Positions 11,153 through 56,555 of a DNA stretch of 64,000 bases are shown piece after piece (within the stretch, counting starts at the first letter, position 1; each line of letters opens with the position of its first letter). The notes below the pieces were generated by a model. The model saw only the letters and a list, made by a program, of their open reading frames with translations, was not told where the DNA came from and did not search any database. The position numbers and the translations under genes are program-made. The stretch lies in the sequence record PP239276.1. The stretch is one strand, 5' to 3'. Origin of the DNA: Escherichia phage BME3.

Positions 11153-11174
11153 GATTATTTCTCTCTTCTGTTAT

Positions 11175-11236
11175 GAGCGGCACTATTGCCGCCCCTCGAC
11201 AAGATGAATACTACGCTACCAGGTGAGGAACGTCAA
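11175..11236 (-). promoter_or_regulatory. outermost early promoter plus leader hairpin
   Basis: TTGACG (11231-11236), 17 nt, TAGTAT (11208-11213), hairpin gagcggcactattgccgccc. Confidence 0.55.
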
Positions 11237-11271
11237 CCATTTTTTTAATCTTTTTTTCATTTCTTTTTTGC

Positions 11272-11300
11272 TTGCTATCTATAAAGGAAACGGCTATTAT
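11272..11300 (+). promoter_or_regulatory. divergent sigma70-like promoter (TTGCTA-17-TATTAT)
   Basis: -35 at 11272-11277, -10 at 11295-11300, upstream of ATG 11348. Confidence 0.45.
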
Positions 11301-11347
11301 CTTTCTACCGCGCCAACCAGGGCGCACATCAAAGAAAGGGCGATACC

Positions 11348-11614
11348 ATGACAAATACTCCTTTACATCTCATGCACTCATTGGGCTGGCAAGGCGGCAC
11401 GGTGCACCAGGTAGCAAGCGCAACGGGCTTAAAGGTTGAAACCGTTCTCAACCTGGGCGATCATAAAGTGGAAGAGATAGAACATTTTGATCCGTTCGCT
11501 GATGGTTATCTATGGGCTTGCAGTGGCGGTGGGGAAAGCAAGATCCCACCAGGGGCGCGGGGCGACATGTATTTTTGGTTAGGTGTCCTATCCTGGCAAG
11601 AAAACAAAAAATAA
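11348..11614 (+). CDS. hypothetical protein (88 aa)
   Basis: ORF track; RBS aaagaaaggg. Confidence 0.55.
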   Translation: MTNTPLHLMHSLGWQGGTVHQVASATGLKVETVLNLGDHKVEEIEHFDPFADGYLWACSGGGESKIPPGARGDMYFWLGVLSWQENKK

Positions 11615-11616
11615 TC

Positions 11617-11645
11617 TTGACAAGCCCAGGGATCGGGCTTATACT
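11617..11645 (+). promoter_or_regulatory. strong sigma70-like promoter (TTGACA-17-TATACT) with no obvious downstream ORF
   Basis: -35 at 11617-11622, -10 at 11640-11645; spacer contains hairpin agccc-n7-gggct. Confidence 0.45.
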
Positions 11646-11875
11646 GTTTTACATACAGAAGAGGAAGCGCCACCCCCACGGCGTAAAGGCGGGGCTAACA
11701 TACCAGGGGGCACTGGTTGGAAGGTTGATCGCCGGTAGCTCGTCTAAAATAAATTTGTAAAGAAATGTAAAGATAAAAATAATCGCTTGCTTTTGTTGTT
11801 GGTTATGCTATTCTTATTGTATGGCGAGGGGACACGGGAGCGCGAGACAAACACCACCCCTGCGCGTTATTCTCT

Positions 11876-11990
11876 AAATGAGAAAAATTCTCATTTGCTA
11901 ATGATTCTCATTCTCTTAGTGAGAATGATTATCACTTACATAATTAAATGATAATGATTCTCATTTACAAATGAGAATGATTATCATCCG
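11876..11990. repeat. Array of Fur-box-like palindromes
   Basis: aatgagaa/ttctcatt, tcattctc-ttagt-gagaatga, tctcattt-aca-aaatgaga; gagaatgattatca core recurs. Confidence 0.5.
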
Positions 11991-12010
11991 CACACCCATA
12001 AAAACACGAA

Positions 12011-12225
12011 ATTGAACTTTTCATTTTTGATTTTTCTACGGAAAAAGGCAAAAAAACTTTAAATAAACTGGGGAATTTTTTAAAAATTGAAGTTTTCATT
12101 TTCAAAATCTGGATAGAAATACATACAAAAACTTTAAATAATTTTGACCAAACTTGAACTTTTCATTTTCAAAATTTGTATCCAAAAATCTGTAAAAACT
12201 TTAAATAATTTTGTCCTTTTTATAA
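12011..12225. repeat. Three imperfect tandem repeats of about 68-75 bp
   Basis: Units start near 12011, 12086, 12153; each has ttgaacttttcattttcaaaat and aaaactttaaataa. Confidence 0.6.
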
Positions 12226-12427
12226 AAATGATTTTACTGTTCTGTTATAAATAGTAGTTAAGAGATAGTATGCCTTTTAAAAACCAGATATCATAATCCA
12301 ACAAACAAATTAAATAATTTATTAACAGAGTACAAAATAATATTTACTCTGAATATATTATTCAGAGGGTGAATTTCCGTACATGAAACCCACACCCCTT
12401 TTTATAAAAATAAAAATTTTCAAAATA

Positions 12428-12979
12428 TCAGGAAATATCAGATTGTGCTTTTAGATAAACAGCAAGGTCTGTATGCCATTTTCCTAAAAGATTTTGTCCT
12501 TTCCAACAGTCCTTATTTTCCACGTCACGATCCCACATCCCCATTTTGATACCATAAATAGAATCATAAGGGCTTGCCTCTACGAACTCCTTATCTGCGT
12601 AGGTTATAAGTTTATTTTTGAGATCTTCATTTTGTGTGTATTTAAGATACAAACCACGTTTGACAATCTTCTCCCGTAAAGAAGTCCAGGTATCTTCATC
12701 ATAATCTTTAACTAATCTGCCTAGTCGCTTATAATATGCTTGTTCTTTTTCTCCTGTATATCTTAGATCTCCGGTTAAAATAGAAGATGCAATACTGTAA
12801 TCATAAAACAAACATGCTTTTCTCCACATCATATATTGTTCCACACAAGTAAATTCAACAGAACTTGTAATAGAATTATTATACTTGGGTGCTAAAGGTT
12901 CAATAAAAGATGATAGATACCAGTTGCTAAATTCATCTTTTGCTGAAAAGAAGAACACATACTTATCAGTAATCCGCAT
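12428..12979 (-). CDS. NADAR-domain (YbiA-like) protein
   Basis: FFFSAKDEFSNWY, CVEQYMMWRKA and GMWD motifs fit NADAR pattern; TAA-ATG coupling to upstream gene. Confidence 0.6.
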   Translation of the reverse strand: MRITDKYVFFFSAKDEFSNWYLSSFIEPLAPKYNNSITSSVEFTCVEQYMMWRKACLFYDYSIASSILTGDLRYTGEKEQAYYKRLGRLVKDYDEDTWTSLREKIVKRGLYLKYTQNEDLKNKLITYADKEFVEASPYDSIYGIKMGMWDRDVENKDCWKGQNLLGKWHTDLAVYLKAQSDIS

Positions 12980-13969
12980 TTACATCTCCTTACTGTATAC
13001 TAATTTGCCACCATATTGTGTAATAATTTTTTGAAGATTTTCCAAATCAGAAACACTTACTGTTTCTGTATAACCGTCTTTCAACTCTCTTTCCGTTAAA
13101 ATACCAGTTTTTAATTTTTTCTTTATAGCTCTTTCAGCAGCCTTACATTGTTTTACTGTGCTAAAATCATATAAACAAATACGCTCCATAGGAAACATAT
13201 TACGGCTATTTTGAATTTTTAATCGTCTATCACTATCTTTAGCTATACCAAACTTAAGAGCAACTATAATATTATCATCCTTAACAATATTAATATATAA
13301 CTGCTGCTGACTATGACCAGCACACATAGGACAACCTCGACCGAGGCTTAATAAATTATGAGCACTCCCTATCTGCTCACCATGCACAAGACAAAGATAT
13401 TTAAACTTACCTATAGAAGAGGGTTTGGTAATCCAATCTACCCAGACATACCCTTTCCCTTCTACTTCCTTTTTTACCCTATAGGTGATCTGGTCTTCTG
13501 TATACCGATAGTTCCCACAACGACACGGAATATACCCTCGTTTAAGGTTATCTCCTTCAGAGTAAAATTTACCATCACAAACACCTGCTTGAACATATTC
13601 ATCATGAGAGCAAACAGGACATTCAACCATCCAGATAATATTCCTACATCCTTTACCCCGTGTTCCTGTGTTAGTGAAGATAGTGCCTTCCTTAAATTCC
13701 CCTGTAGAAAAGAAATCTGCAATATGTTGATCGTCGGACATTGTTTGTGACTTCCTTATATTCTTCCTCCTACATTGTGGACAACCGCTACCACATTTAA
13801 AACTGTTAATACTTGTAGTATCCCATTTATAACCACAATGGCACAACAAATCAAGTTTTGTGTGGACCCCTTTCCATTGTCCCGTCCATCCTAAGATTTG
13901 GATTTGCTTACTCTCTGCTATTGGTATACACTCTTCTTTATATTGTTCCCATGATTTTGGTGCTGCCAT
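12980..13969 (-). CDS. Zn-ribbon-rich protein, possible GIY-YIG-superfamily nuclease-like C-terminus
   Basis: CxxC pairs (GCPQC, CPVC, GCPMC); C-terminal LYINIV...FGIAKDSDRRLKI; RBS aagaggag; function low confidence. Confidence 0.55.
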   Translation of the reverse strand: MAAPKSWEQYKEECIPIAESKQIQILGWTGQWKGVHTKLDLLCHCGYKWDTTSINSFKCGSGCPQCRRKNIRKSQTMSDDQHIADFFSTGEFKEGTIFTNTGTRGKGCRNIIWMVECPVCSHDEYVQAGVCDGKFYSEGDNLKRGYIPCRCGNYRYTEDQITYRVKKEVEGKGYVWVDWITKPSSIGKFKYLCLVHGEQIGSAHNLLSLGRGCPMCAGHSQQQLYINIVKDDNIIVALKFGIAKDSDRRLKIQNSRNMFPMERICLYDFSTVKQCKAAERAIKKKLKTGILTERELKDGYTETVSVSDLENLQKIITQYGGKLVYSKEM

Positions 13970-14006
13970 CTACTACTCCTCTTATTAAATCTGGCATTAA
14001 TGCAAG

Positions 14007-14029
14007 AAAACCCGCCGAAGCGGGTTTTT
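14007..14029. terminator. bidirectional terminator aaaacccgc-cgaa-gcgggtttt
   Basis: Perfect GC stem flanked by A- and T-tracts; follows stop of 14044..15171 (-). Confidence 0.6.
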
Positions 14030-14043
14030 ATTTGCTGGCTTAC

Positions 14044-15171
14044 TTAAAACACACTTGCCAAAGTTGCACCATTGGTGATAGTTGGTTCCAGAACAATACG
14101 GAAAGAATCTTCTGGATCATCACTAAACACAACGATTTTACCGCCTGTGATAAGATCTGCTTTCATTTTTGTCGCATTCAATGGAATTCGAGCATCGCCT
14201 TCATCATCAAAAACCACGTAAGAGCTATTAGCAAGGGCTTCTTTAGAGTCTGCATCACTTGGAGATGACAAGTACACGTCTAGTGTGCACGAACCACCTA
14301 AAAAGATTGCAGGTGTAAAGTTATGCCAACTAGATACCCAGCTAACTTTCTGAAGTTTTCCATTAATAACAACGCTGCTGATATCCCATTTATTACCACC
14401 ACCTAAAGAAACGCCCATCATAGAGATGCATTCTTTAAAGGATAAATCAGGGTAGAAATTAAGTTCTTCTACTATACCTTGGATCACATCAAAGGACAAC
14501 TCTAAACTTACATCCCAAAGTCTTTGGAAATTATCAAAGTGTGCTTTGTTATCCAGGTTTTTATCTAAATAGTCAATCATAGTTTCTAGTGAGATTTTAT
14601 CATAATTAAAATTATAAAACACACGACTAGGACGATTTAAAAAGAATTCAGAGATAAAACCACTGTTTTTAGTCAGAATAAACAGTTTATTACCACTGCC
14701 AGTACCATCTAACAAAGTGAGAAGTGCTTCTTGATCTTGTTTCTTCTCATACACTTTATCAAACTCGTCAAAAATAATCACTGCTTTGTCGGTGATCTTG
14801 CTAATAAGTTCAATGAAATTAGCATCGCTGTAGGCTTGAGTAACCATAATAGTTGGAATACCTTCTTCTACAAGGTCACGACTAATGAGTTTGGCTAACA
14901 TAGTTTTACCACTGCCCTTAGTTCCTGTCAGGAGCAAACCTGTATTTTTACCTTGTGCACTCCGGCGATGGAATGTACGAATAACGTGATTTGCTCGTTT
15001 TTCTGTTTCACCATACAGAACATCCGGTACACCTGTTAGATTACCACGGCTTAAAAAATAATTGCCAAGGGGATCACGACTAACAGTATAGAATCCAGGT
15101 GGAAGATAGTTAGATTCCACGCCCATATCTTTATTTACACTTACAATATCACCATAAATCGTGTATTTCAT
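14044..15171 (-). CDS. classic-clade AAA ATPase (paralog A)
   Basis: Walker A GTKGSGKT, Walker B IIFDEFDK, LLTLLDG, sensor-1-like FILTKN. Confidence 0.7.
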   Translation of the reverse strand: MKYTIYGDIVSVNKDMGVESNYLPPGFYTVSRDPLGNYFLSRGNLTGVPDVLYGETEKRANHVIRTFHRRSAQGKNTGLLLTGTKGSGKTMLAKLISRDLVEEGIPTIMVTQAYSDANFIELISKITDKAVIIFDEFDKVYEKKQDQEALLTLLDGTGSGNKLFILTKNSGFISEFFLNRPSRVFYNFNYDKISLETMIDYLDKNLDNKAHFDNFQRLWDVSLELSFDVIQGIVEELNFYPDLSFKECISMMGVSLGGGNKWDISSVVINGKLQKVSWVSSWHNFTPAIFLGGSCTLDVYLSSPSDADSKEALANSSYVVFDDEGDARIPLNATKMKADLITGGKIVVFSDDPEDSFRIVLEPTITNGATLASVF

Positions 15172-45534: not shown

Positions 45535-47307
45535 GTGTCTTATGTTGTAAATAAATATGGGTATAACATTGATCTAAGTCAAGAAGGACATACTGGGTGT
45601 CCTCGTTGTATGAAAGGAGGGCGTGATCGATCACAAAACAATTTGATGGTATATGGCTTAGATGCCGATGAAGACCATCGAGGCGCACATTGTTTTTCTT
45701 GTGGCTTTACTATCCCTGATCAAAAATGGTTAAATGCACACGGCGAAGAAATTGAAGAGGAGGATATCTTGGGTAGTGAGTTTAATCCAGAAGTACATGA
45801 TAAACTAAAAGCCAGCACTGGGACTAATCCAAAAGGTTATCGCGGTATTCGTGAAGATATCTCTAAGCCTTTCGGTGTACGCTATATGTACGATGAAGCT
45901 ACTGGCGAAGTAATTTCAACACTATACCCTACAACTAAAGATTACAATATTGCTGGGTATAAACAACGTATCGATCCAAAAGATTTTTCGCATCCTATCG
46001 GTGAAACAGGAAAGGATTGTGATCTTTTTGGGGAGTTTAAATATCGTAACCACAGCGGTACTATTCTAATCGTTGGTGGTGAACACGATATGCTGGCTGC
46101 AACACAGATGCTAAAAGATTATAACAAGGGTGGTAAATATCCTGTTCCTGCTGTAGTATCTGGTACTTGTGGCGAAACATCTCTGCATAAGCAGCTTCAA
46201 CATCGTTATAAATTCTTAGATCAATTTAAAAAGATTGTTCTGTGTATGGATAATGATGAAGCTGGACGTGCAGCAGTTGAGAAATGTGTTAAAATCTTAC
46301 CACGTAATAAAGTTTACGTGATGGAACTAACGGATGTTAAAGATCCTAACCAGGCACTAGTAGAAGGAAAAATTGATCACTTTCTTGATCGCTTTTTCAA
46401 AGCTAAACTGTACACACCTGCTGGTGTTTATGCTTCTAACGTACTGTATGAAGCAGCCTTGGAATGTCTGGAAGCTAAAATGATTACTCTTCCTCCATTC
46501 ATGCGTGTTGCTTCTAATATGTTAGGTGGAGGCTTGGTAGAAGAAGAAATTACTGTTATACTTGCAAAAACAAGTATTGGTAAGACACTGTTGGTTAACG
46601 AGATTACGAAACACATTATTCTTGCACACCCAGAACATACTCTTGGTATTTTATCTTTGGAGGCAACGTATAAGAAGTATTCTCGTAACTTACTGTCTTC
46701 ATTCTTGCACATCCCTCTTCACCGTAAAACAAAAGAAGAGAAGGAAAAGATTTTAAAAGATAATGAAGAAAAGATTCGTGATTTTTACGAACGGGAAGAT
46801 GGAACACCACGTTTCTATGTTTGTGATGATCGTGGAGCTAACGTAGATGTGATTAAAGAGAAGGTTCTGGAAATGATTATTTATTTCGGAGTAACCATTC
46901 TTGTTATCGACCCTTATTCTGACTTGCTTTCTGGTATGGACGTGTCACAACAAGAGGAACTTGCGACGTGGCTCAAACGCATTATGAAAGAGTACGCAAT
47001 CACCATTGTTGTAATTTCACACGTTAAAAAGTCTTCTAACAATAGTAATGAACATATTGTAGAAGATGATGCAATGGGTAGTAGCTTCCTTGCTAAAGGT
47101 GCTGGTATCACAATTGCGCTGGAGCGTGATAAACAAGCTGAAGATCCTATGGAACGTAACCGCACATATTGCTACATCCTAAAGAACCGTGAGTTCTCAG
47201 AGACTGGTGCAGCAGGTAGTTTCTTCTATGAGATTAAAACAGCGACACTTCACGATTACGATCAATACACAAGTAACCCAGAGAATATTCCTGATGGTTC
47301 TTATTAA
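45535..47307 (+). CDS. bifunctional DNA primase-helicase (T7 gp4-like)
   Basis: Zn-binding CPRC/CFSCG, TOPRIM (EHD, DNDEAG), DnaB-like Walker A KTSIGKT; GTG start with RBS aggaga. Confidence 0.8.
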   Translation: MSYVVNKYGYNIDLSQEGHTGCPRCMKGGRDRSQNNLMVYGLDADEDHRGAHCFSCGFTIPDQKWLNAHGEEIEEEDILGSEFNPEVHDKLKASTGTNPKGYRGIREDISKPFGVRYMYDEATGEVISTLYPTTKDYNIAGYKQRIDPKDFSHPIGETGKDCDLFGEFKYRNHSGTILIVGGEHDMLAATQMLKDYNKGGKYPVPAVVSGTCGETSLHKQLQHRYKFLDQFKKIVLCMDNDEAGRAAVEKCVKILPRNKVYVMELTDVKDPNQALVEGKIDHFLDRFFKAKLYTPAGVYASNVLYEAALECLEAKMITLPPFMRVASNMLGGGLVEEEITVILAKTSIGKTLLVNEITKHIILAHPEHTLGILSLEATYKKYSRNLLSSFLHIPLHRKTKEEKEKILKDNEEKIRDFYEREDGTPRFYVCDDRGANVDVIKEKVLEMIIYFGVTILVIDPYSDLLSGMDVSQQEELATWLKRIMKEYAITIVVISHVKKSSNNSNEHIVEDDAMGSSFLAKGAGITIALERDKQAEDPMERNRTYCYILKNREFSETGAAGSFFYEIKTATLHDYDQYTSNPENIPDGSY

Positions 47308-47317
47308 GGAGAGAAAT

Positions 47318-47713
47318 ATGAAAGACAACGAAAATATCCTCTATGGTGTAGCCCCTTCTGCGTTAGGGTATGATTATACAAAAACTGTTGCTAAGTTTAA
47401 ATTTCAAGATGGATCGGAGTTAGAACCATACGGTTATGCTTATGGTGAACATTTGTGGTTTGAGGATGGTTGTCTATACCTTCTCATTCAAACTACCAGT
47501 GGTTTTGTGGGAGAGCTTGTAGATCGTATGCTGAAAAATGTTAGTGATAAAGTTGTTCTTGATATCGCTAGTAAGGATGAAAACATTAATAACATTGTTT
47601 CCACTTTTAGTGGCTTAACAGGGACAGTTAAAATTGACCGTGTAGGCTTGAGAAATACCAATGGTGTCCCTAATTGCCTTATTAAAGTACAATTAAGTGC
47701 TGACAATAAATAA
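47318..47713 (+). CDS. hypothetical protein (131 aa)
   Basis: ORF track 47189..47713 trimmed to ATG 47318 with RBS aaggagag. Confidence 0.5.
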   Translation: MKDNENILYGVAPSALGYDYTKTVAKFKFQDGSELEPYGYAYGEHLWFEDGCLYLLIQTTSGFVGELVDRMLKNVSDKVVLDIASKDENINNIVSTFSGLTGTVKIDRVGLRNTNGVPNCLIKVQLSADNK

Positions 47714-47717
47714 CAAG

Positions 47718-47740
47718 AAGGGGCGAAAGCCCCTTTACAA
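47718..47740 (+). terminator. hairpin aaggggc-gaaa-gcccctt
   Basis: GC stem with GAAA loop; weak T tail. Confidence 0.4.
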
Positions 47741-47803
47741 AACAATTAATTTATGGTACAGTATTAACAAATTAAGACTTTAGAAATATTTTAAGGAGGG
47801 AGA

Positions 47804-50383
47804 ATGGGAGCTTTTACTTTCGACATTGAAAGTAACAACTTGCTTAATGACGAAAGTGTAGATTACTTGGCAAGTCCATATCGTTTAAAAGATAGTTTTG
47901 CAATGCACTGTATTGTGTGCGAAAGTCATGATACTGGAGAGATTATTGCTTTCCATGATGGTGATAAATATCTTTTCGATGGTCGTCCGTATGTTGAGAC
48001 TGACGGAAAGTATGAATACCGACTGGAGGAATATGAGCATTTAGAATATACCCATTTCCCTCTTAAAGATTTTCCTGATTTTGTAAATGGAACAGGTAAA
48101 TTTAAAGGTAATTCAAACTATAAAATTACCAAAGTAGTTGGACACAACATCATTAACTTCGACTTACTGGCAATTAAATTATTTTTTAAACTCAACTACA
48201 GTATTAAGTACAATACTTGGGGTAATAGTAACATTGAAATTTGTGATACTATGATCTTAAGTAAGACACTAAACCCTGATCGCTTCGGTGGTCATAGTCT
48301 GGCAGAGTTATCTAAGAAAGCTGGAGGGGATGTTAAAATTGATTTCAGAAAAAACATTCCTGAAACTGAAAGATTTAGAACATTTGCAGCAGATATGCTG
48401 TATTACTGTATTTACGATAACAAAGCTAACACCGCAGTGTTCCGTTATCTGATGGAAGAATGGGGTGATTATAGTAAGTGGTCTGAACCATTTAACTTAG
48501 AACAACGTGTAGCTGATATTATTACACGTCAAGAGCACCGTGGCTTTGCTTTCAATATGAAACAAGCAGAAGATAATATTCGTGATCTGGATGCTCGAAT
48601 GGAAGCATGTCGTTTAGAGGCAGAACCTGTACTACCTCCTAAACCTGCTACTAAAGGTTATTTGAAATCATTCATTCCACCTAAACTACAGTTTAAAAAG
48701 AATGGTGAACCTTCAAGTAACATGATAAAGTTTGCAGAGAAACATTCTGGTGAACTTGTACAAAAAGAAGATGGTTGGTGGTTATTTGCTTTAGGTAAAG
48801 AATTCAAACTCCCTATTCCAGCAGAAGAACCTATTTGTGATCCTACAGTACCTGCTACTTTAGACGACACTACACATATTAAAAACTGGTTAGTTGGTTT
48901 AGGTTGGAGTCCATCTGAATATAAAGATAAAGATATCACTCTTAAATCTGGCACTAAGATTAAGAAAGATGAAGCACAAATGGAGAAAGCTATTCGTGAC
49001 TATGTTGATCAAACATTAGCATCTAACTTCTGCCAGGATAGATGTGATCATCTGGAGTGCACACCAGAAACTTTGGAATGGAAACTAAGAGATCGTATTG
49101 CTAAAGCTAAAGGTCGTGGTGTTAAAGTGCTTACTAACCCTTCCTTTACAAAAGGGCAAGAGAAAGATATTTGTCCTAACTTGGAAGCACTAGGTGAAAA
49201 GTTTCCTTATGCTACGCAGATTGTGCAATATCTTACGTATAAACATCGTAGAAACTCTATTCTAGGTGGTGGTGCTGATTGGGAAGAAGATGAAGAGGAT
49301 TACGATAAAGGTTATCTGGCGGCAGTAAGGGCTGATGGTCGTATACCAACTCCTGCTGCAACGTGTGATGCAGCTACGTCTCGTATGAAACATAGGTTAG
49401 TAGCAAATATCCCACGTGTAACATCTCTGTACGGATATGAAATGCGTAACTTATTTGGTGTAGAAGTTCCAAAATACTTCCAGATTGGTTATGACTTCGA
49501 TTCTCTTGAAGCAAAAATAGAATCACACTACTGTTGGCGGTACGAGCAGGAGCCACACGAATATTGTAATGCTCTATTGTTGGAAAAACCTAATGATGTT
49601 CATACAATGATGGCTCGACGTATTTCTGACACTATTGGTCGTAAGTTTGAACGAAGCCCTGCTAAATCTGTTAAGTATGGTATTACCTATGGTGCTCAAG
49701 CTGCAAAAGTAGCAAAAACTATTGGTAGTGATATGTATACAGGACAGCTTGTATACGATGCTTTCTGGGAAGCTGCAAAACCTCTTGCGCTTCTTAAAGA
49801 ACGTCTGCATGATTTTTGGGTTAAAACAGGTAAGAAATACATTCTTGGTATTGATGGTAGAAAAGTACCTACACGATCTGCACACGCAATACTTAACTCT
49901 CTGTTCCAGAGTGGTGGTGTTATTTGTGCAAAAAGAGCAATGGTTATCTACGACGATCTTATCGAAGAAGAAGGATTAGCTGTTGACTTTTTTGTTGATG
50001 ACTGGAAAAATAAGTCATTCGTTCAACAAATGATTGCATATCACGATGAAGCACAGCTTGAAGTAACTCGTGATCTGGTGCATTTTAAATGGTTCTCTAA
50101 AGAATCTTTAGGTTGGACTCAAGTTGATGATCCAGAAGAACAAAAGAAAATTGATAAAGAATGTTTGGATAAAGTTAACGCCTGGAAAGAAGAGGAAGAG
50201 AAACGTACTGGCAAGATTTGGGCTAACGTACATGAATCTCCTAAAGGTGGTTGGTTTACAGCCTACAGTCGTGCTGGAGAATTAGCATCTATTGCTGTTA
50301 ATAAAGCTGGTGAGTATTACAATCTTAATGTACCTCTCACTGCTGGTTACGATGTTGGTAACTCATGGGCTAGTTGTCACTGA
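47804..50383 (+). CDS. family A DNA polymerase with 3'-5' exonuclease domain
   Basis: Exo I FTFDIESNNL, motif B KSVKYGITYGAQ, motif C IAYHDEAQLEV; RBS aaggaggg. Confidence 0.9.
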   Translation: MGAFTFDIESNNLLNDESVDYLASPYRLKDSFAMHCIVCESHDTGEIIAFHDGDKYLFDGRPYVETDGKYEYRLEEYEHLEYTHFPLKDFPDFVNGTGKFKGNSNYKITKVVGHNIINFDLLAIKLFFKLNYSIKYNTWGNSNIEICDTMILSKTLNPDRFGGHSLAELSKKAGGDVKIDFRKNIPETERFRTFAADMLYYCIYDNKANTAVFRYLMEEWGDYSKWSEPFNLEQRVADIITRQEHRGFAFNMKQAEDNIRDLDARMEACRLEAEPVLPPKPATKGYLKSFIPPKLQFKKNGEPSSNMIKFAEKHSGELVQKEDGWWLFALGKEFKLPIPAEEPICDPTVPATLDDTTHIKNWLVGLGWSPSEYKDKDITLKSGTKIKKDEAQMEKAIRDYVDQTLASNFCQDRCDHLECTPETLEWKLRDRIAKAKGRGVKVLTNPSFTKGQEKDICPNLEALGEKFPYATQIVQYLTYKHRRNSILGGGADWEEDEEDYDKGYLAAVRADGRIPTPAATCDAATSRMKHRLVANIPRVTSLYGYEMRNLFGVEVPKYFQIGYDFDSLEAKIESHYCWRYEQEPHEYCNALLLEKPNDVHTMMARRISDTIGRKFERSPAKSVKYGITYGAQAAKVAKTIGSDMYTGQLVYDAFWEAAKPLALLKERLHDFWVKTGKKYILGIDGRKVPTRSAHAILNSLFQSGGVICAKRAMVIYDDLIEEEGLAVDFFVDDWKNKSFVQQMIAYHDEAQLEVTRDLVHFKWFSKESLGWTQVDDPEEQKKIDKECLDKVNAWKEEEEKRTGKIWANVHESPKGGWFTAYSRAGELASIAVNKAGEYYNLNVPLTAGYDVGNSWASCH

Positions 50384-50520
50384 CATCTCTTTGATTTTAA
50401 AGGAGTTTTTATGTGGGACAATCTGTTATTGCCAAGGTTGTTCCACACTTTTAAACCATTTCATAATTAGATGTTTGAACATCTAGAATAACGCAAAGAC
50501 CATAAGAGATAGGAGAAAAT

Positions 50521-51114
50521 ATGAATATTGAAGATCAAAAAGTACGAGCTTTAGAAGTATTACGTATGTGCCAACTGGTAGATCCGTTTGCAATTGTAGC
50601 TGGCGGCGCTGTACGTGACTGGCGATTAGAGAAACCTGCGCAAGATATTGATATTTACTTGCGTATGCCTAACCACAATACACTCGTACTAGTAGAGAAA
50701 TTTTTGATGTTGGGTGTTGGTGCACGTAATGTTAAACAACTTACTAAGCAAACAGAACACACTTATGCCGAACTACCACATTTGAAATGGGTATTTGAAG
50801 CATACTATAAAGACCTTAAATTTAATTTTATGATCATGGAAGAGGGTGTACGCAGTGAAATCGTATGGAACTTTGACGTAGCTATTTGCCTGTGTTACTG
50901 GGATGGTCAAAATTATGTATATCATCCAGATTTTGAATTTGCACTGAAAACTAATATTTGTACTATTAATCACCGATACACAGGTAAAGAAGCACACGTC
51001 CGTAAAATGGCAGAACGTTTCCCTATGTTCCGCTTTGTAAAAGACGTTTTCATTCCCAAAGAACCCGAAGTACGTACACTGGATTCATTTAACAACGAAG
51101 AATTTAAGATTTAA
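50521..51114 (+). CDS. minimal nucleotidyltransferase of CCA-adding/poly(A) polymerase head-domain type
   Basis: VAGGAVRD followed by DIDIY, as in class II CCA-adding enzymes; only about 197 aa. Confidence 0.55.
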   Translation: MNIEDQKVRALEVLRMCQLVDPFAIVAGGAVRDWRLEKPAQDIDIYLRMPNHNTLVLVEKFLMLGVGARNVKQLTKQTEHTYAELPHLKWVFEAYYKDLKFNFMIMEEGVRSEIVWNFDVAICLCYWDGQNYVYHPDFEFALKTNICTINHRYTGKEAHVRKMAERFPMFRFVKDVFIPKEPEVRTLDSFNNEEFKI

Positions 51115-51157
51115 GTGTTGACAAACATTATAATTATGTGTTATTATGAGGACTTGA

Positions 51158-51556
51158 ATGACAGATAATCGTTCTAAAATCTTAGTCGAGACGTTCTATA
51201 GTAGAGAAACTAATCGTCTTGAGTTAACTAAAAAAGATGTTGAACCTCAAGATAATACCTTTTTTATTCAAATACTATGTCTCTTTGGTGGATACAACCG
51301 TTTAACAGTGAGAGTAGAAGACAAAGAGATATCTGAAACCACTATCACAAAACGTGAACTAATGCTATTACAGGACACAATACGAGATGTTTTGGATAAT
51401 CCTGGAAAAGCAAAAGTAATTAACCTTGGTGGAGAAAAGATACAAATTCTCCATTTTGAAAGTGGTGAAATAGGATTTGGTATTGGTCTTGGTAAATACC
51501 TGTTGGAAGAAACTGACGCTACTCTTTTACGAGAGTTTTGTGTTAAAGTAATGTAA
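51158..51556 (+). CDS. hypothetical protein (132 aa)
   Basis: ORF track. Confidence 0.55.
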   Translation: MTDNRSKILVETFYSRETNRLELTKKDVEPQDNTFFIQILCLFGGYNRLTVRVEDKEISETTITKRELMLLQDTIRDVLDNPGKAKVINLGGEKIQILHFESGEIGFGIGLGKYLLEETDATLLREFCVKVM

Positions 51557-51572
51557 TTATAGAGGAGAATTT

Positions 51573-52520
51573 ATGCCAGTAATTAATTCTGAAATCGACC
51601 GCCGTACTAAAAAAGAAGCATTCTGGGCTGAAGGTATTGTCGAATATGTCAAACTAGATAAGTTTGATGAAATGAAAGTCTCTTATATTAAGGTTGCAGG
51701 TCAACCAGATAAGAAAATTGAATCAACTCACAAAGCATCTCTGCTTATTAAAGAGAAAGGTGCTAGTGCTGATGATAAAGGTGTTTGGGTTAGCCTAGGT
51801 GAAGTTAAACTGCATCCAGAACATGAAAACCTGCAAGTTAAAGATGGTGACAAGTGGGTTACTATCGAAAAAGGTGTAGAACTAACTATGGATGTTAAAC
51901 CTTCTGAATGGAATGGCAAAACATACTACAATTCCTCTAAAGGTAAAATCACTATTCTTTCAACAGAAGGTGTTCAGCAAGCACAATCTTCTTCAAAAGG
52001 TGGAAATAAGCCATCTAATAACGAAGGTAGCAAGCCTAACTACAAAAAACGTGATACCGTAGGGATTGAAACAGGACACGCTGTAAATGGCGCTCTGGAG
52101 CTTCTACGTGCTGGTGTGAAAGGTGATGCTTTCGACTTGGCTGGTGTGGTACAATCTGCAACTGTTACTCTGAAAGCAGAAATTGCTAAAGATCGTGGTG
52201 TTGATGTGACTGATTATGATCTTGGTGCTTCAGTTGGACACGCAATTCTTAACGCTTGTCGTGATCATACAGGTAAGACTGTAACTGCAGAAGAGATTAT
52301 TGAAGCTGCTCGTGAAGTTCTTGCTTTGTCTGATAAAGTAGCTGCTGCTATCCGTGGAATGTCTACCCCAGTACAAGAAGTTAAGAAAGAAACTAAAAAA
52401 GTAGAGAAGAAAGAGCCAGCACCGAAAGAACCAGAACCTGTTGTTCAAGATTTCGATGATGATATCCCATTTGCTCCTATTGGTTTGCAGTATGGTCGAA
52501 ACTTCCTGCACTGTTTCTAA
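51573..52520 (+). CDS. single-stranded DNA-binding protein (putative)
   Basis: C-terminal tail DFDDDIPF mirrors bacterial SSB interaction tip; flexible G/S/K-rich linker; RBS agaggag. Confidence 0.55.
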   Translation: MPVINSEIDRRTKKEAFWAEGIVEYVKLDKFDEMKVSYIKVAGQPDKKIESTHKASLLIKEKGASADDKGVWVSLGEVKLHPEHENLQVKDGDKWVTIEKGVELTMDVKPSEWNGKTYYNSSKGKITILSTEGVQQAQSSSKGGNKPSNNEGSKPNYKKRDTVGIETGHAVNGALELLRAGVKGDAFDLAGVVQSATVTLKAEIAKDRGVDVTDYDLGASVGHAILNACRDHTGKTVTAEEIIEAAREVLALSDKVAAAIRGMSTPVQEVKKETKKVEKKEPAPKEPEPVVQDFDDDIPFAPIGLQYGRNFLHCF

Positions 52521-52542
52521 TAGTTAAATATTGTGTGAATAT

Positions 52543-52569
52543 AAGGAGCCTAACGGCTCCTTTTCTTTG
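52543..52569 (+). terminator. terminator aaggagcc-taac-ggctcctt plus T-tract
   Basis: Follows SSB stop. Confidence 0.55.
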
Positions 52570-52580
52570 AAGGAGATATA

Positions 52581-53312
52581 ATGAGCGAATTTGTAAACAA
52601 CACCGCATTAAACTACCTGCAAACCCTCGAAAGCAATAGTGTAGATTTGATTCTTACTGACCCACCATATGCTATTTCTCGTGACACAAATTTTCAGTCT
52701 GGAGAGCCTACTGGAAAAGATACGGATAGATTCCGTGTATCTTACAACTTTGGTGATTGGGATGTTGTAGATATTCCTTACTTTAAAGAAGTATTCAAAG
52801 AAGCCTACAGGGTGCTTAGAAAAGGTGGTACTTGCATAGTTTGGTATGATATCTGGAAGATCCAGGAGCTACGTGAAATCCTTGAACCGCTTGGTTTTCG
52901 TATGTTCCGTACTATTGAATGGATTAAAACAAACCCTGTACCCATCAACAGTGGTGTTAACTACCTTAGTAACGCTAAAGAAATGGCTATTGTTTGTGTT
53001 AAAGGTTCTAAGCCAACCTTCAATGCTTCCTACCATAAGGGTGTGTTTGAGTATCCTATCTATCAAGGAGCAGATCGTTTTCATCCAACACAAAAACACT
53101 TGACTTTGTTTTGTGACCTTATTAATATACACACCAACGAAGGAGATGTAGTCTTAGACTTCTTCTCTGGAAGTGCAACAACACAAGTTGCGGCACTTTT
53201 AACAGGTAGAGAATACTTAGGCTGCGAAGCCGATGTAAATATTTTTAAGCAAGCGGAGGAACGACTAAATGAGTACACTGAACAGCAAAATCACCCTGAA
53301 AGCACTGATTAA
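52581..53312 (+). CDS. beta-class DNA methyltransferase (N6-adenine or N4-cytosine), orphan
   Basis: Motif IV DPPY near N-terminus, motif I FFSGSATT near C-terminus; no adjacent restriction enzyme. Confidence 0.8.
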   Translation: MSEFVNNTALNYLQTLESNSVDLILTDPPYAISRDTNFQSGEPTGKDTDRFRVSYNFGDWDVVDIPYFKEVFKEAYRVLRKGGTCIVWYDIWKIQELREILEPLGFRMFRTIEWIKTNPVPINSGVNYLSNAKEMAIVCVKGSKPTFNASYHKGVFEYPIYQGADRFHPTQKHLTLFCDLINIHTNEGDVVLDFFSGSATTQVAALLTGREYLGCEADVNIFKQAEERLNEYTEQQNHPESTD

Positions 53313-53700
53313 CAATGGTATGAACCTGGACTCTGGTCTGTCTCCAAAGATTTCTATGGCACGACTGGAACAAGTTACTGGTCTTCGTCAAGTAAGTAAT
53401 GGCGGGAAGATTATTCGTGATGACGCTGTACCTTTTAATAAATTTCAGATTGAACGTCATTACGATCCTGTAACTGCAAGTCTCACTGGTGTAACTTTCT
53501 CAGGTTATCGTACTGCTGGATACCAACGTAAGGTTGTAGCTGAACGTATTAAGAGTCGCAAACAGAAAATTGCAACATTGAAGAAACTGGTAGAGAAAGA
53601 TGTTTCAGAACTTCTTAACCTGTATGAAACTCTTGAAACAAAAGGTGAAGATCATAAACTCTTTTCTAAAGAAGATGTAAGCGTAATTTTCACTGATTAA
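53269..53700 (+). CDS. hypothetical protein (143 aa)
   Basis: ORF track; RBS ggagga; overlaps MTase 3' end. Confidence 0.5.
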   Translation: MSTLNSKITLKALINNGMNLDSGLSPKISMARLEQVTGLRQVSNGGKIIRDDAVPFNKFQIERHYDPVTASLTGVTFSGYRTAGYQRKVVAERIKSRKQKIATLKKLVEKDVSELLNLYETLETKGEDHKLFSKEDVSVIFTD

Positions 53701-53708
53701 GATAAAAG

Positions 53709-53734
53709 AAAAGGAGCCTAATGGCTCCTTTTTT
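53709..53734. terminator. bidirectional terminator aaaaggagcc-taat-ggctcctttttt
   Basis: Sits between convergent genes 53269..53700 (+) and 53736..56555 (-). Confidence 0.65.
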
Positions 53735-53735
53735 A

Positions 53736-56555
53736 TTAGTCGTAATATTTCAAACCTGTAATAAAGACTGATCCCCAATCGTACAAGCTGGAGTAGTTTA
53801 TTGTCCAAGTAGATGCCGTACCAGAGAATACGTCACGAACAACGTCGCCGTTGGAATAGTAAACATCCACACCAGTATGTCCGTTCCTTGGTATAGTGAA
53901 GGATACTCCTCCTAAATTTCCAGGATATGTGCAGACATAAGGCGATCCAGCTTTTGATGTTTCTCCTGTAGAAGCACCTTCAAGCTGTGGCAACCAAACT
54001 GCAAGGTTACTAGTACCATCTCCAGCGAAAATCTCCGCACCAGTTGCATCCAAGGCAATTATTTCAAAACTTATGGAGGACTGTTTGGCTATCCCTGTTT
54101 TATGCAGAATAGCACGATACCAACCGTTGCCCATAGATATAATATTAGCTTCACTTCCTGTGAATGTACCTGCTGCTAAATCAAAAGTACCCTCATTAAC
54201 TTCAGTTCCTGCTTTTAATCTTAGTTTGGCCTTAGTAATCCCGTTCGCTTTCAAGAAAACAGAGGCAGACCAGTTACGTCCGGCAGATATGTTGTACGCG
54301 TTAGTATATGTCGCAGTTAAGATATGACTACCAGAGGTTGTAGTCGGAGTTAATTTGAATACATTAGCAGTGGTTCCAGCCGGAGAGTTATCAGATGAAG
54401 CTGCAACAGTTAAGTTGGTCTTTACCCACGGGCTTGCGCTTGTTAAGGCGTTGTTGACAAAAATTTGTGTAGCTGTGTTAGCTGTTACACGTCTACCTAC
54501 AGGGGTAGTGCCAACATACTCCAACGGAGCAACCAAGGTGTTAGTGGCTACAAGTGTATCTCCAGAAGCACGAGCAAAAGAGTTCCCACCATTAACCTTA
54601 ACATCTGATGGAAGAGTTTCTTGTGTCAAATCATAGTCCATCACGACAGGTTTATCTTCTACTTTTCCTGCTGTAACGCTAACATTAAAACGTACTAAAG
54701 GAGATAACACATCATTTGCTTCGTCATAATATGCAACATCAAATATCGTAGTACCTGCTGCAAAACCATATTGTTCTACTTGATCTGCATAGGTAAACGT
54801 ATAACTGTTCGTATTAAGCGTTTGTTCAGTTAATACAGATGCTGTTAAGACGTTAATATTACGGAAGTAGTGTTTACTATAACCTTGAGCATCCCATGCT
54901 AAAATTGTATCTTGATTAGACTGGGAAGTAGCTGTTGCTCCAGTTGGAACAGCCATATCAACCCAAACAGGTGATGTTGATGTTAAGTCTGTACCGTCTG
55001 CTGCTGATTTAGCAAGTTTTGTAGCTGCTGTTTGGTATACAGAAGAAATATAATGGATACGACCATCAATACCTTCTTCATAAACATAACCACTGTAGCG
55101 TTCAGCACCATCCACCCAAGAACCAATGATAACATCATCACGTGCCGTAGAGATGGCTCTTTGTACATTTCTGTATTTCTGCCAATCCACACCATTAACT
55201 TCTACACCATATAGATAAGAACGTCCTAGGATCTGCCAAACAATTTTTGCTTGAGAAGCAGGAACTATTGTACGCATCTTATCAAAGATAGCTATCGTAG
55301 CATCATGGTAACGTGTAGTGTTACTGTATCTACCTGCAACAGTCGAAGATGCTGATACAGCATCATTTTCACCTTGTCCCCAAATAATCGCTTTAACCTT
55401 ACTTGCATAAGGTGTGACTTTAGTGATAAAGTTAGTTAAGCATGGCCCATCTGCTGTATTATCCAGATCATACCAGTAGTTGTCTGGTGTACCTGTTCCA
55501 GCTTTATCATCTGCATATTTATCTGCTGCTGATGATCCAGAAGCTGTATTTAACGGGAGAACTTCAGCATTTGCTAAACCACGTTGCGTAGCATATGCAT
55601 TACGGGCTGTTGTGCTACTCATTGCTGCTTTATTTGCACCAGATAGTTCTGTAAAGTGTGCATTTACGTTATCTTGTCCAGCAAAGACAATAACTTCTTT
55701 AATGAATGAATCATCTGTAGCTATTGAGTTATTAAAGATAACGGGTGCTGCTTTGGTGCTCTTAACGCTAATTTTAAGGTATGTTGGAGCAAACCCATAA
55801 AGAGGAATAGAGTCAGAGATATCAAAGTAAGCGTAAGTATTCGTGGTTGTTGTAGTCCACTGGACACTGTTATTACTTAAATCTAATACTTCTACAGTAT
55901 AAGTATCACCATCTAGCGGATCAGCTACATCCCAAGCAACACGAATGTCTCCATAGCTGTTTGCCACGGCTGTTACATTAGAAATAACAGGAATAGCATT
56001 AACACCTAAATAAGAACTATCAGAGGCCACCACTGTTCCTTGATAAGTTGCAGTACAACCTATACGGCAACTGCCATCTTTAAGAGCAGTTATTAATCCT
56101 GTAGGGCTTACAGTAGCTACTTCTGGATCTGTTGTGGTGTACGTAATTACCATGTCTGGAAGGTCTTTAGCACCTTCTGGACTGATTGTAGCAACCAATT
56201 GTTGAGTAGTTCCTGCATCCATAGCAGACAGACTTTCAGTGTACACACTTAATTCTGAAGCATAGCCACCAGATTGATCAGTTAAGACAGCACCTAAATT
56301 ATTTTTAGCTGTCATTATTGCATCAAAACCGCCTTCAGCAACAAACTCCATCATACCATTATTATCTATAACCATTTTGGTATTATCTGAAGATGAAAAA
56401 GCTATATCAAATAACGCACCATCTTCTGGTGAAACTGTGTATGTCAGTTGCTTTTTACTACCAACTATTGCAATACCAATAGAGGAAGTGGTTATAGATG
56501 TAGCTGTTACTACTGAAGCTGATGTTGTTGACATAAATAAAGGAATAGGATACAT
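53736..56555 (-). CDS. tail fibre/spike with Ig-like domains and putative SGNH/esterase-like domain
   Basis: 939 aa; Big_2-like segments (DPEVATVSPTGLITALKDGSCRI); VIVFAGQDNVNAHF recalls GQSN esterase motif; RBS aaggag. Confidence 0.65.
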   Translation of the reverse strand: MYPIPLFMSTTSASVVTATSITTSSIGIAIVGSKKQLTYTVSPEDGALFDIAFSSSDNTKMVIDNNGMMEFVAEGGFDAIMTAKNNLGAVLTDQSGGYASELSVYTESLSAMDAGTTQQLVATISPEGAKDLPDMVITYTTTDPEVATVSPTGLITALKDGSCRIGCTATYQGTVVASDSSYLGVNAIPVISNVTAVANSYGDIRVAWDVADPLDGDTYTVEVLDLSNNSVQWTTTTTNTYAYFDISDSIPLYGFAPTYLKISVKSTKAAPVIFNNSIATDDSFIKEVIVFAGQDNVNAHFTELSGANKAAMSSTTARNAYATQRGLANAEVLPLNTASGSSAADKYADDKAGTGTPDNYWYDLDNTADGPCLTNFITKVTPYASKVKAIIWGQGENDAVSASSTVAGRYSNTTRYHDATIAIFDKMRTIVPASQAKIVWQILGRSYLYGVEVNGVDWQKYRNVQRAISTARDDVIIGSWVDGAERYSGYVYEEGIDGRIHYISSVYQTAATKLAKSAADGTDLTSTSPVWVDMAVPTGATATSQSNQDTILAWDAQGYSKHYFRNINVLTASVLTEQTLNTNSYTFTYADQVEQYGFAAGTTIFDVAYYDEANDVLSPLVRFNVSVTAGKVEDKPVVMDYDLTQETLPSDVKVNGGNSFARASGDTLVATNTLVAPLEYVGTTPVGRRVTANTATQIFVNNALTSASPWVKTNLTVAASSDNSPAGTTANVFKLTPTTTSGSHILTATYTNAYNISAGRNWSASVFLKANGITKAKLRLKAGTEVNEGTFDLAAGTFTGSEANIISMGNGWYRAILHKTGIAKQSSISFEIIALDATGAEIFAGDGTSNLAVWLPQLEGASTGETSKAGSPYVCTYPGNLGGVSFTIPRNGHTGVDVYYSNGDVVRDVFSGTASTWTINYSSLYDWGSVFITGLKYYD

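Follow-up and report, generated by a model that had tools for sequence, protein, structure and literature searches.

Class-II nucleotidyltransferases (NTases), among them the CCA-adding enzymes as well as poly(A) polymerases, combine a catalytic head with neck, body and tail domains. In the CCA-adding enzymes, the body and tail bind the tRNA elbow, while the motifs RRD (motif B) and EDxxR (motif D) act as an amino-acid 'template' that selects CTP and ATP. Smaller proteins with a similar core have also been described. The small 'tRNA nucleotidyltransferases' of Autographiviridae (Pectobacterium PP47 gp28, PP2 and Friunavirus) are stand-alone class-II-like heads of about 170–215 amino acids (aa) that lie among replication genes; they are accessory, and their role is stated to be unknown (PMC7693777, PMC8092837). 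The MenT/AbiEii toxins (PDB 8an4) are small Pol-beta NTases, and these ∼200-aa proteins modify tRNA acceptor ends (PMC10435456, PMC11541572). A 191-aa protein of Streptococcus pneumoniae (NP_344798.1, PDB 2LA3), described as a 'CCA-adding enzyme head domain', is bacterial and also of unknown function. Here, we analyze a protein of comparable size encoded at positions 50521..51114, on the plus strand, of a 64,000-nucleotide stretch (the window) of Escherichia phage BME3 (PP239276.1).

The gene has an ATG start and a TAA stop and encodes 197 aa. A ribosome-binding site, AGGAG (50511..50515, plus strand), was read from the sequence 5 nt before the ATG; one is also annotated in the record of phage phi92. 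The protein is residue for residue that of phi92 gp158 (UniProt I7HXH1), is present on 226 contigs, and is called gp158 below. Between BME3 and phi92 the gene differs at 13 nucleotides, and since all 13 differences are synonymous, it is under purifying selection. The window itself is of the phi92-like E. coli myovirus type (Justusliebigvirus, Stephanstirmvirinae), with ∼98% nucleotide identity to many records. The names given to gp158 in database entries are 'hypothetical protein', 'nucleotidyltransferase' and 'putative tRNA nucleotidyl transferase/poly(A) polymerase'. It matches PHROG 1614 ('nucleotidyltransferase') over its full length (E = 2e-34, aa 7–193), and PF26128.2 is precomputed in the protein database listing for a 99%-identical cluster representative and many homologs. 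Given this match, the size of the family and the invariance of its catalytic residues (both described below), chance can be dismissed as the source of the similarity. As a sequence feature, gp158 is ordinary: phi92 has exactly this protein, with an annotation, and the phage family to which it belongs is catalogued. Public databases thus already hold the protein, what it is called and its family, and the structural reading in the original prediction repeats that annotation.

Overall structure

The AlphaFold2 model of gp158, computed from an 81-sequence alignment, is confident (predicted local distance difference test 88.9; predicted template-modelling score 0.82) and has the fold of a class-II-type head domain. 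The top 42 PDB matches found with it by Foldseek are all class-II enzymes. More distant folds in the structural comparison are those of Pol X (score 8.9), TENT5 (8.2), MenT1 (8.1), antibiotic NTases (≤7.6) and CD-NTases (≤6.5). Compared to class-II enzymes, the loop that connects the two central strands is reduced in the model to a tight hairpin. We conclude that gp158 is a folded and conserved protein that belongs, as a stand-alone domain, to the Pol-beta nucleotidyltransferase superfamily. From the order of secondary-structure elements in the model, we read it as a class-II-type head that would be followed by the first elements of the neck. The original prediction had proposed a CCA-adding/poly(A) polymerase-type head lacking body and tail domains. 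The head is borne out by the model fold and by the conserved catalytic carboxylates, and the missing domains by length: 197 aa for gp158 and 175–250 aa for the family, compared to ∼370–450 aa for class-II enzymes and 344–517 aa for the structural matches of gp158.

A sequence-profile search of the PDB gave only an insignificant match to motif A (E = 0.34). The S. pneumoniae protein 2LA3 shares 9% identity with gp158 and is not found by the family sequence profile; because its own function is also unknown, it gives no functional transfer to gp158. The small NTases of Autographiviridae match gp158 in BFVD at the level of the fold (TM about 0.6, E about 1e-7), but belong to a separate sequence family, with 13–19% identity in the fold alignment, and are not recovered by tblastn at E≤1e-5. 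Giant viruses and T7-like phages account for many further stand-alone heads of small size in BFVD. The MenT/AbiEii toxins resemble gp158 in lacking body and tail, but gp158 has neither a PADLOC match among defence-system models (MenT/AbiEii, CD-NTase and others) nor a partner gene of such a system. Compared to minimal Pol X proteins (the Thermus thermophilus Pol X palm, PDB 3au2, and African swine fever virus Pol X, PDB 5hr9), gp158 has the class-II GGxxRD helix motif and not the Pol X motifs, lacks fingers and thumb, and shows no sign of template use.

Active site

The original prediction rested on a 197-aa open reading frame (ORF) carrying VAGGAVRD followed by DIDIY. Both motifs are in place, at aa 26–33 (nt 50596–50619) and aa 42–46 (nt 50644–50658), respectively. 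Together they delimit motif A, VAGGAVRDWRLEKPAQDIDIY (aa 26–46; 50596..50658, plus strand), which comprises the GG helix cap and the catalytic aspartates D42 and D44, as identified by family conservation, hhalign and Pfam PolyA_pol. The arrangement GGxVRD, eight residues, DxD is found in AGGAVRDWRLEKPAQDIDIY (aa 27–46), and the 12-residue spacing from GG to DxD is the same in the class-II enzymes of E. coli, Geobacillus, Aquifex and Planococcus.

Conservation was counted in an alignment of 81 diverse homologs with 23–51% identity. Eleven positions are invariant (D21, P22, A27, G28, G29, W34, D42, D44, Y46, Y82 and M104), including both catalytic aspartates, on whose conservation the original prediction depended. 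R32 (96%), E93 (94%), F118 (93%), K162 (98%) and P168 (91%) are nearly so. E93 (codon 50797..50799, plus strand; E in 76 of the 81 homologs) lies in a predicted β-strand (residues 88–96) and, by analogy with the Pol-beta fold, is the putative third metal-binding carboxylate. With the GG motif and the DxD pair retained, together with a putative third carboxylate on the strand that follows, gp158 is likely to be an active two-metal enzyme.

A second conserved region lies near the C-terminus, at K156–P168 (50986..51024, plus strand; consensus KExHVxKMxxxFP), where the model has a helix at residues 158–166. K156 is conserved in 78% of the homologs and H/Y159 in 100%, in addition to K162 and P168. 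This helix is proposed to take part in nucleotide binding.

At three positions gp158 itself departs from the usual family residue: V31 (P in 80/81), Y126 (W in 80/81) and D128 (K in 68/81), encoded on the plus strand at nt 50611–50613, 50896–50898 and 50902–50904. With V31, its motif A (GGAVRD) is closer to that of cellular class-II enzymes than to the usual GGAPRD of the family.

It is highly improbable that gp158 is an inactive remnant or a purely structural protein. Most class-II motifs are indeed missing and one homolog, that of Vibrio phage ICP1, is truncated. However, catalytic residues that are invariant at about 25–50% identity, strong purifying selection and a family of thousands of clusters argue for a working enzyme.

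Departures from canonical CCA-adding enzymes

Compared to class-II enzymes, gp158 is half the size, and no sequence similarity is detectable past motif A. Pfam PolyA_pol (PF01743) matches with E = 0.0017 and 19.1 bits, over profile positions 3–59 of 126, and matches at E<0.01 are seen in 7 of the 81 family members. In the PolyA_pol profile search that the original prediction suggested as a check, the match thus covers the part around motif A, and its score stays under the gathering threshold of 23. The NCBIfam equivalogs for CCA-adding enzymes score far below their cut-offs (NF009814, 15 versus 290 bits; TIGR03671, 13.9 versus 281 bits). When the family profile was compared by hhalign with four class-II head-plus-neck sequences, the alignment comprised only the 26 columns of motif A.

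Motifs B and D are absent from gp158 and are not conserved among the 81 homologs. Their places were assigned by the order of secondary-structure elements alone. The place of motif B would thus be held by W116-N-F-D119, where the family has x-x-F-G, with F118 conserved as above and G at position 119 in 65%. The place of motif D, where hhalign gave no alignment, would be held by a helix, KEAHVRKMAERFP (KEAHVRKM; family consensus KExHVxKM). The protein ends shortly after this helix, and motif E, the rest of the neck, the body and the tail are missing. Given the absence of a tRNA-measuring body and tail and of the amino-acid template motifs, gp158 is not a canonical CCA-adding enzyme; membership in that group was rejected on these grounds together with the sub-threshold PolyA_pol and NCBIfam scores, and canonical CCA addition is disfavoured.

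Of the functions suggested in the original prediction (tRNA 3′-end repair, RNA tailing or a nucleotide signal), the first would make gp158 a true CCA-adding or repair enzyme, rebuilding C-C-A on phage or host tRNAs whose tails had been trimmed by exonucleases of the host or by immune nucleases that cut there. The closest folds are those of CCA-adding enzymes, and the spacing within motif A is identical. tRNA 3′ tails are, moreover, a documented immune target (Cas12a3, PMC12851939), and the host tRNA nucleotidyltransferase is of importance to infecting phages (Morse & Deutscher 1976, cited in PMC7693777). Against this stand the unconserved CTP/ATP-selecting motifs, the lack of domains for binding the tRNA elbow, and equivalog scores of 14–15 bits where 281–290 are required. 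Taking these points together with the tRNA genes described next, we regard this explanation as quite improbable.

tRNA genes

No tRNA genes were found in the 64,000-nt window. The original prediction had called for a check for phage tRNA genes elsewhere in the genome, and a complete genome 97.7% identical to BME3 (MG065639) does carry a cluster of 15, located ∼40 kb from the NTase gene. Thus, the phage type has tRNA genes, as a tRNA-repair role would lead one to expect, but each of the 15 already encodes its own 3′-CCA. Because of this, maturation of the phage tRNAs would proceed without CCA addition, and a need for it in that process is ruled out. Repair of host tRNAs by gp158 is compatible with these findings.

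Of 32 family loci, six have tRNA genes no more than 8 kb from the NTase, and a complete 46.9-kb Vibrio podovirus (Zobellviridae) carries the family gene and has no tRNA genes. Both observations weigh against CCA repair. A linkage between the NTase and phage tRNA genes was therefore rejected, considering also the empty window and the distance in MG065639.

Two loci do have tRNA genes close by. A 147.7-kb viral contig (L019) has 11 at 11155–14622, starting 2.6 kb downstream of the NTase, and in another (L044, 16100–16198) a predicted tRNA with a CUA anticodon, of amber suppressor type and called tRNA-Pyl by ARAGORN, lies near the NTase. MG065639.1 belongs to a set of records titled 'UNVERIFIED Campylobacter phage' (A150, A145, C3 and A110a, with C. 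jejuni as host) that share 97.7% identity with this type of E. coli phage, which looks like host mis-assignment or contamination.

Family size and distribution

By tblastn, the family is present in 195 phage records, including phages of Escherichia, Klebsiella, Citrobacter, Pseudomonas, Vibrio (ICP1 among them) and Aeromonas. A HMMER profile of the 81 members retrieves 2,388 clusters at 50% identity (E≤1e-3), 887 of them at E≤1e-10. Nearly all are 175–250 aa long and are matched end to end; in ten longer members, no Pfam domain was found in the extensions. A pattern scan of one genome from each of 185,579 prokaryotic species yielded a single match, on a short contig of a metagenome-assembled genome, while the viral contig collection yielded 95. 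Within the limits of such a pattern-based scan, the family looks virus-restricted.

The copy in Vibrio phage ICP1_2006_A (L010, 3959–4378) has 139 aa and stops right after the head β-sheet (…FGASVCMAW*). A split gene was considered, but the small ORF downstream is unrelated, indicating that the copy is truncated. All listed ICP1 isolates show the same 59–63% coverage, so the truncation is apparently fixed in the lineage.

Homologs in Citrobacter phage Tr1, Pseudomonas phage PsgM04F and Phapecoctavirus nepoznato, together with a few from metagenomes, have at the C-terminus an acidic ...D(D)IPW tail resembling the docking peptide of single-stranded DNA-binding protein (SSB) (L003 3995–4615, L004 3923–4603 and L005 3974–4564; proteins P0152, P0210 and P0241). 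Such a tail was rejected as a family feature, being present in 7 of 326 members; gp158 ends in ...NNEEFKI.

The virus restriction is of the kind typical of host-manipulation genes, and raises the question of a target other than nucleic acid: gp158 could adenylylate a host protein or small molecule, in the manner of ANT or MNT, or make or decoy a nucleotide signal for counter-defence. The Pol-beta fold allows such chemistries, the near-neutral isoelectric point (6.3 for gp158; family median 6.4) fits, and the gene behaves as an accessory one in related phage groups (PMC8092837). On balance, we judge a target of this sort to be distinctly unlikely.

Genomic context

Immediately upstream of the NTase lies the gene of a family-A (T7-type) DNA polymerase (47804..50383, plus strand; PHROG 17 DNA polymerase, E = 1.5e-111). 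The 137-nt spacer between them (50384–50520, plus strand) differs from that of phi92 at three positions. Since a terminator scan revealed no terminator-like site between the two genes, they are likely to be co-transcribed. The spacer can form two hairpins, with a 13-bp stem at 50412–50447 and a 7-bp stem at 50468–50485 (z = -2.76 versus shuffles), and contains a mini-ORF of 19 codons (ATG at 50411 to TAG at 50470) that starts 5 nt after AAGGAG; in relatives, small ORFs are annotated at this position.

Between the NTase stop codon and the start of the gp157 homolog there is a sigma-70 promoter-like site (51118..51147, plus strand; TTGACA-18-TATTAT with TG before the -10). It matches the consensus at 11 of 12 positions, is the best in 47000–54000, and is kept in phi92 with one spacer change. 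Judged by its sequence, this site probably starts a gp157/gp156 unit, in which case the polymerase unit would end with the NTase. The gp157 homolog (51158–51556, plus strand; PHROG 16560) accompanies the NTase in 6 of 56 lineages. The gp156 homolog (51573–52520, plus strand; 315 aa, PHROG 4477, no Pfam match), named single-stranded DNA-binding protein in some records, carries DFDDDIPF near its C-terminus, followed by 18 more residues; DFDDDIPF is the C-terminal tip motif of E. coli SSB. A terminator-like hairpin follows at 52543–52562. The order of polymerase, small ORFs, NTase, gp157-like and gp156-like genes recurs in the Klebsiella, Citrobacter, Pseudomonas and Phapecoctavirus relatives.

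For a wider survey, ORFs were called and neighbours clustered in 56 non-redundant lineages (70% identity). In 40 of them, the eight genes on either side of the NTase include a replication gene, and in 31 the nearest three do. The neighbours include DNA polymerase (26 lineages, within eight genes), primase-helicase (22), SSB-like protein (15), FEN-type exonuclease (12) and ligase (8); other recurrent neighbours are homing endonucleases, dCMP deaminase and ribonucleotide reductase. Of the close neighbours, 289/322 point in the same direction as the NTase. Neither RNA ligase nor polynucleotide kinase was found among the recurrent neighbour clusters that could be annotated; four small clusters (58–144 aa) are unannotated.

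This neighbourhood is an argument for a replication-associated terminal transferase, which would extend the 3′ ends of DNA or primers by (deoxy)nucleotides at the replisome, for instance to protect ends, handle primers or process gaps. In T7-like phages, the analogous small NTases are likewise found beside the polymerase or among replication genes (PMC7693777, PMC8092837). The small clade with the SSB-like tail would also fit, although gp158 does not belong to it and its members are as few as noted above. In class-II enzymes the RRD motif senses ribose, and its loss could permit use of deoxynucleoside triphosphates (dNTPs). On the other side, we know of no class-II-type enzyme that acts on DNA, the similarity to Pol X is weaker than that to class-II RNA enzymes, with fingers and thumb missing, and phage genes cluster according to timing as much as to function. 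We consider a terminal transferase of this kind rather unlikely.

The replication and dNTP-metabolism context is, in itself, not decisive as evidence of function. The phage T4 tRNA-repair genes pseT and rnlA also lie among dNTP-metabolism genes, and given this precedent the context is compatible with RNA repair, including repair of CCA ends.

Other features of the region concern the neighbouring genes. The polymerase ORF has 859 aa in BME3, compared to 1,104 aa annotated for phi92 gp159 (L001, 5070–8384); one record names it 'DNA polymerase, part I', and in Klebsiella phage FKP3 a gene for an HNH endonuclease lies directly upstream of the polymerase. This suggests a variable homing-endonuclease insertion at the 5′ end of the polymerase gene, or differing start calls. 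A few kb upstream of the polymerase/NTase block, phi92 has three glycosyltransferase genes, gp163–165 (L001, 1–2519).

Functional implications

The explanation we tentatively favour is that gp158 moves a nucleotide from a nucleoside triphosphate, possibly also a dNTP, onto a 3′-OH by two-metal catalysis and without a template. It would thereby extend nucleic-acid 3′ ends by one or a few nucleotides, with no recognition of tRNA shape. The likeliest acceptor would be an RNA 3′ end, on which a terminal nucleotide may be restored or added, on tRNA or other RNA, during infection, as an accessory function expressed together with the replication genes. RNA is preferred as the acceptor because of the ancestry of gp158. 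Short tailing or terminal-nucleotide repair at an RNA 3′ end is to our mind a real possibility, somewhat short of an even chance.

Several observations weigh against this explanation. A near-neutral isoelectric point is odd for a protein that would bind nucleic acid on its own, and the recurrent neighbours are genes of DNA replication and dNTP metabolism, not RNA ligase or polynucleotide kinase. The host has Cca and PcnB, which makes the benefit of a second RNA-end enzyme doubtful. The ICP1 copy, which stops after the head sheet, may mean that the C-terminal helix proposed to bind nucleotide is dispensable, or else that this copy is dead. Finally, no experimental study of the family, and no paper on PF26128 or 2LA3, was found in the literature. 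A related activity, in which gp158 would act like a poly(A) polymerase and tail host (or phage) transcripts to mark them for decay, seems very unlikely.

Whichever end is acted upon, the gp158 family is a very large and apparently virus-only group of seemingly active mini-enzymes, derived from CCA-adding enzymes and placed in many phage replication modules. Its carriers include phi92-like and rV5-like phages of the therapeutic type, Bas60 (a BASEL phage) and ICP1-related Vibrio phages. The functional question includes the mending of RNA ends and action on DNA ends, and the present analysis narrows it in that the textbook CCA mechanism is disfavoured. The family could represent a new functional class of viral enzyme, a shape-independent 3′-end nucleotidyltransferase which would either restore tRNA tails cut by Cas12a3-type immune nucleases or host exonucleases, with no need for the domains that measure tRNA, or use dNTPs on DNA or primer ends at the replisome after loss of the ribose-sensing RRD motif; we think this unlikely. 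If true, such an activity would provide a function for ∼2,400 uncharacterised viral clusters, as well as for the analogous NTases of T7-like phages and giant viruses.
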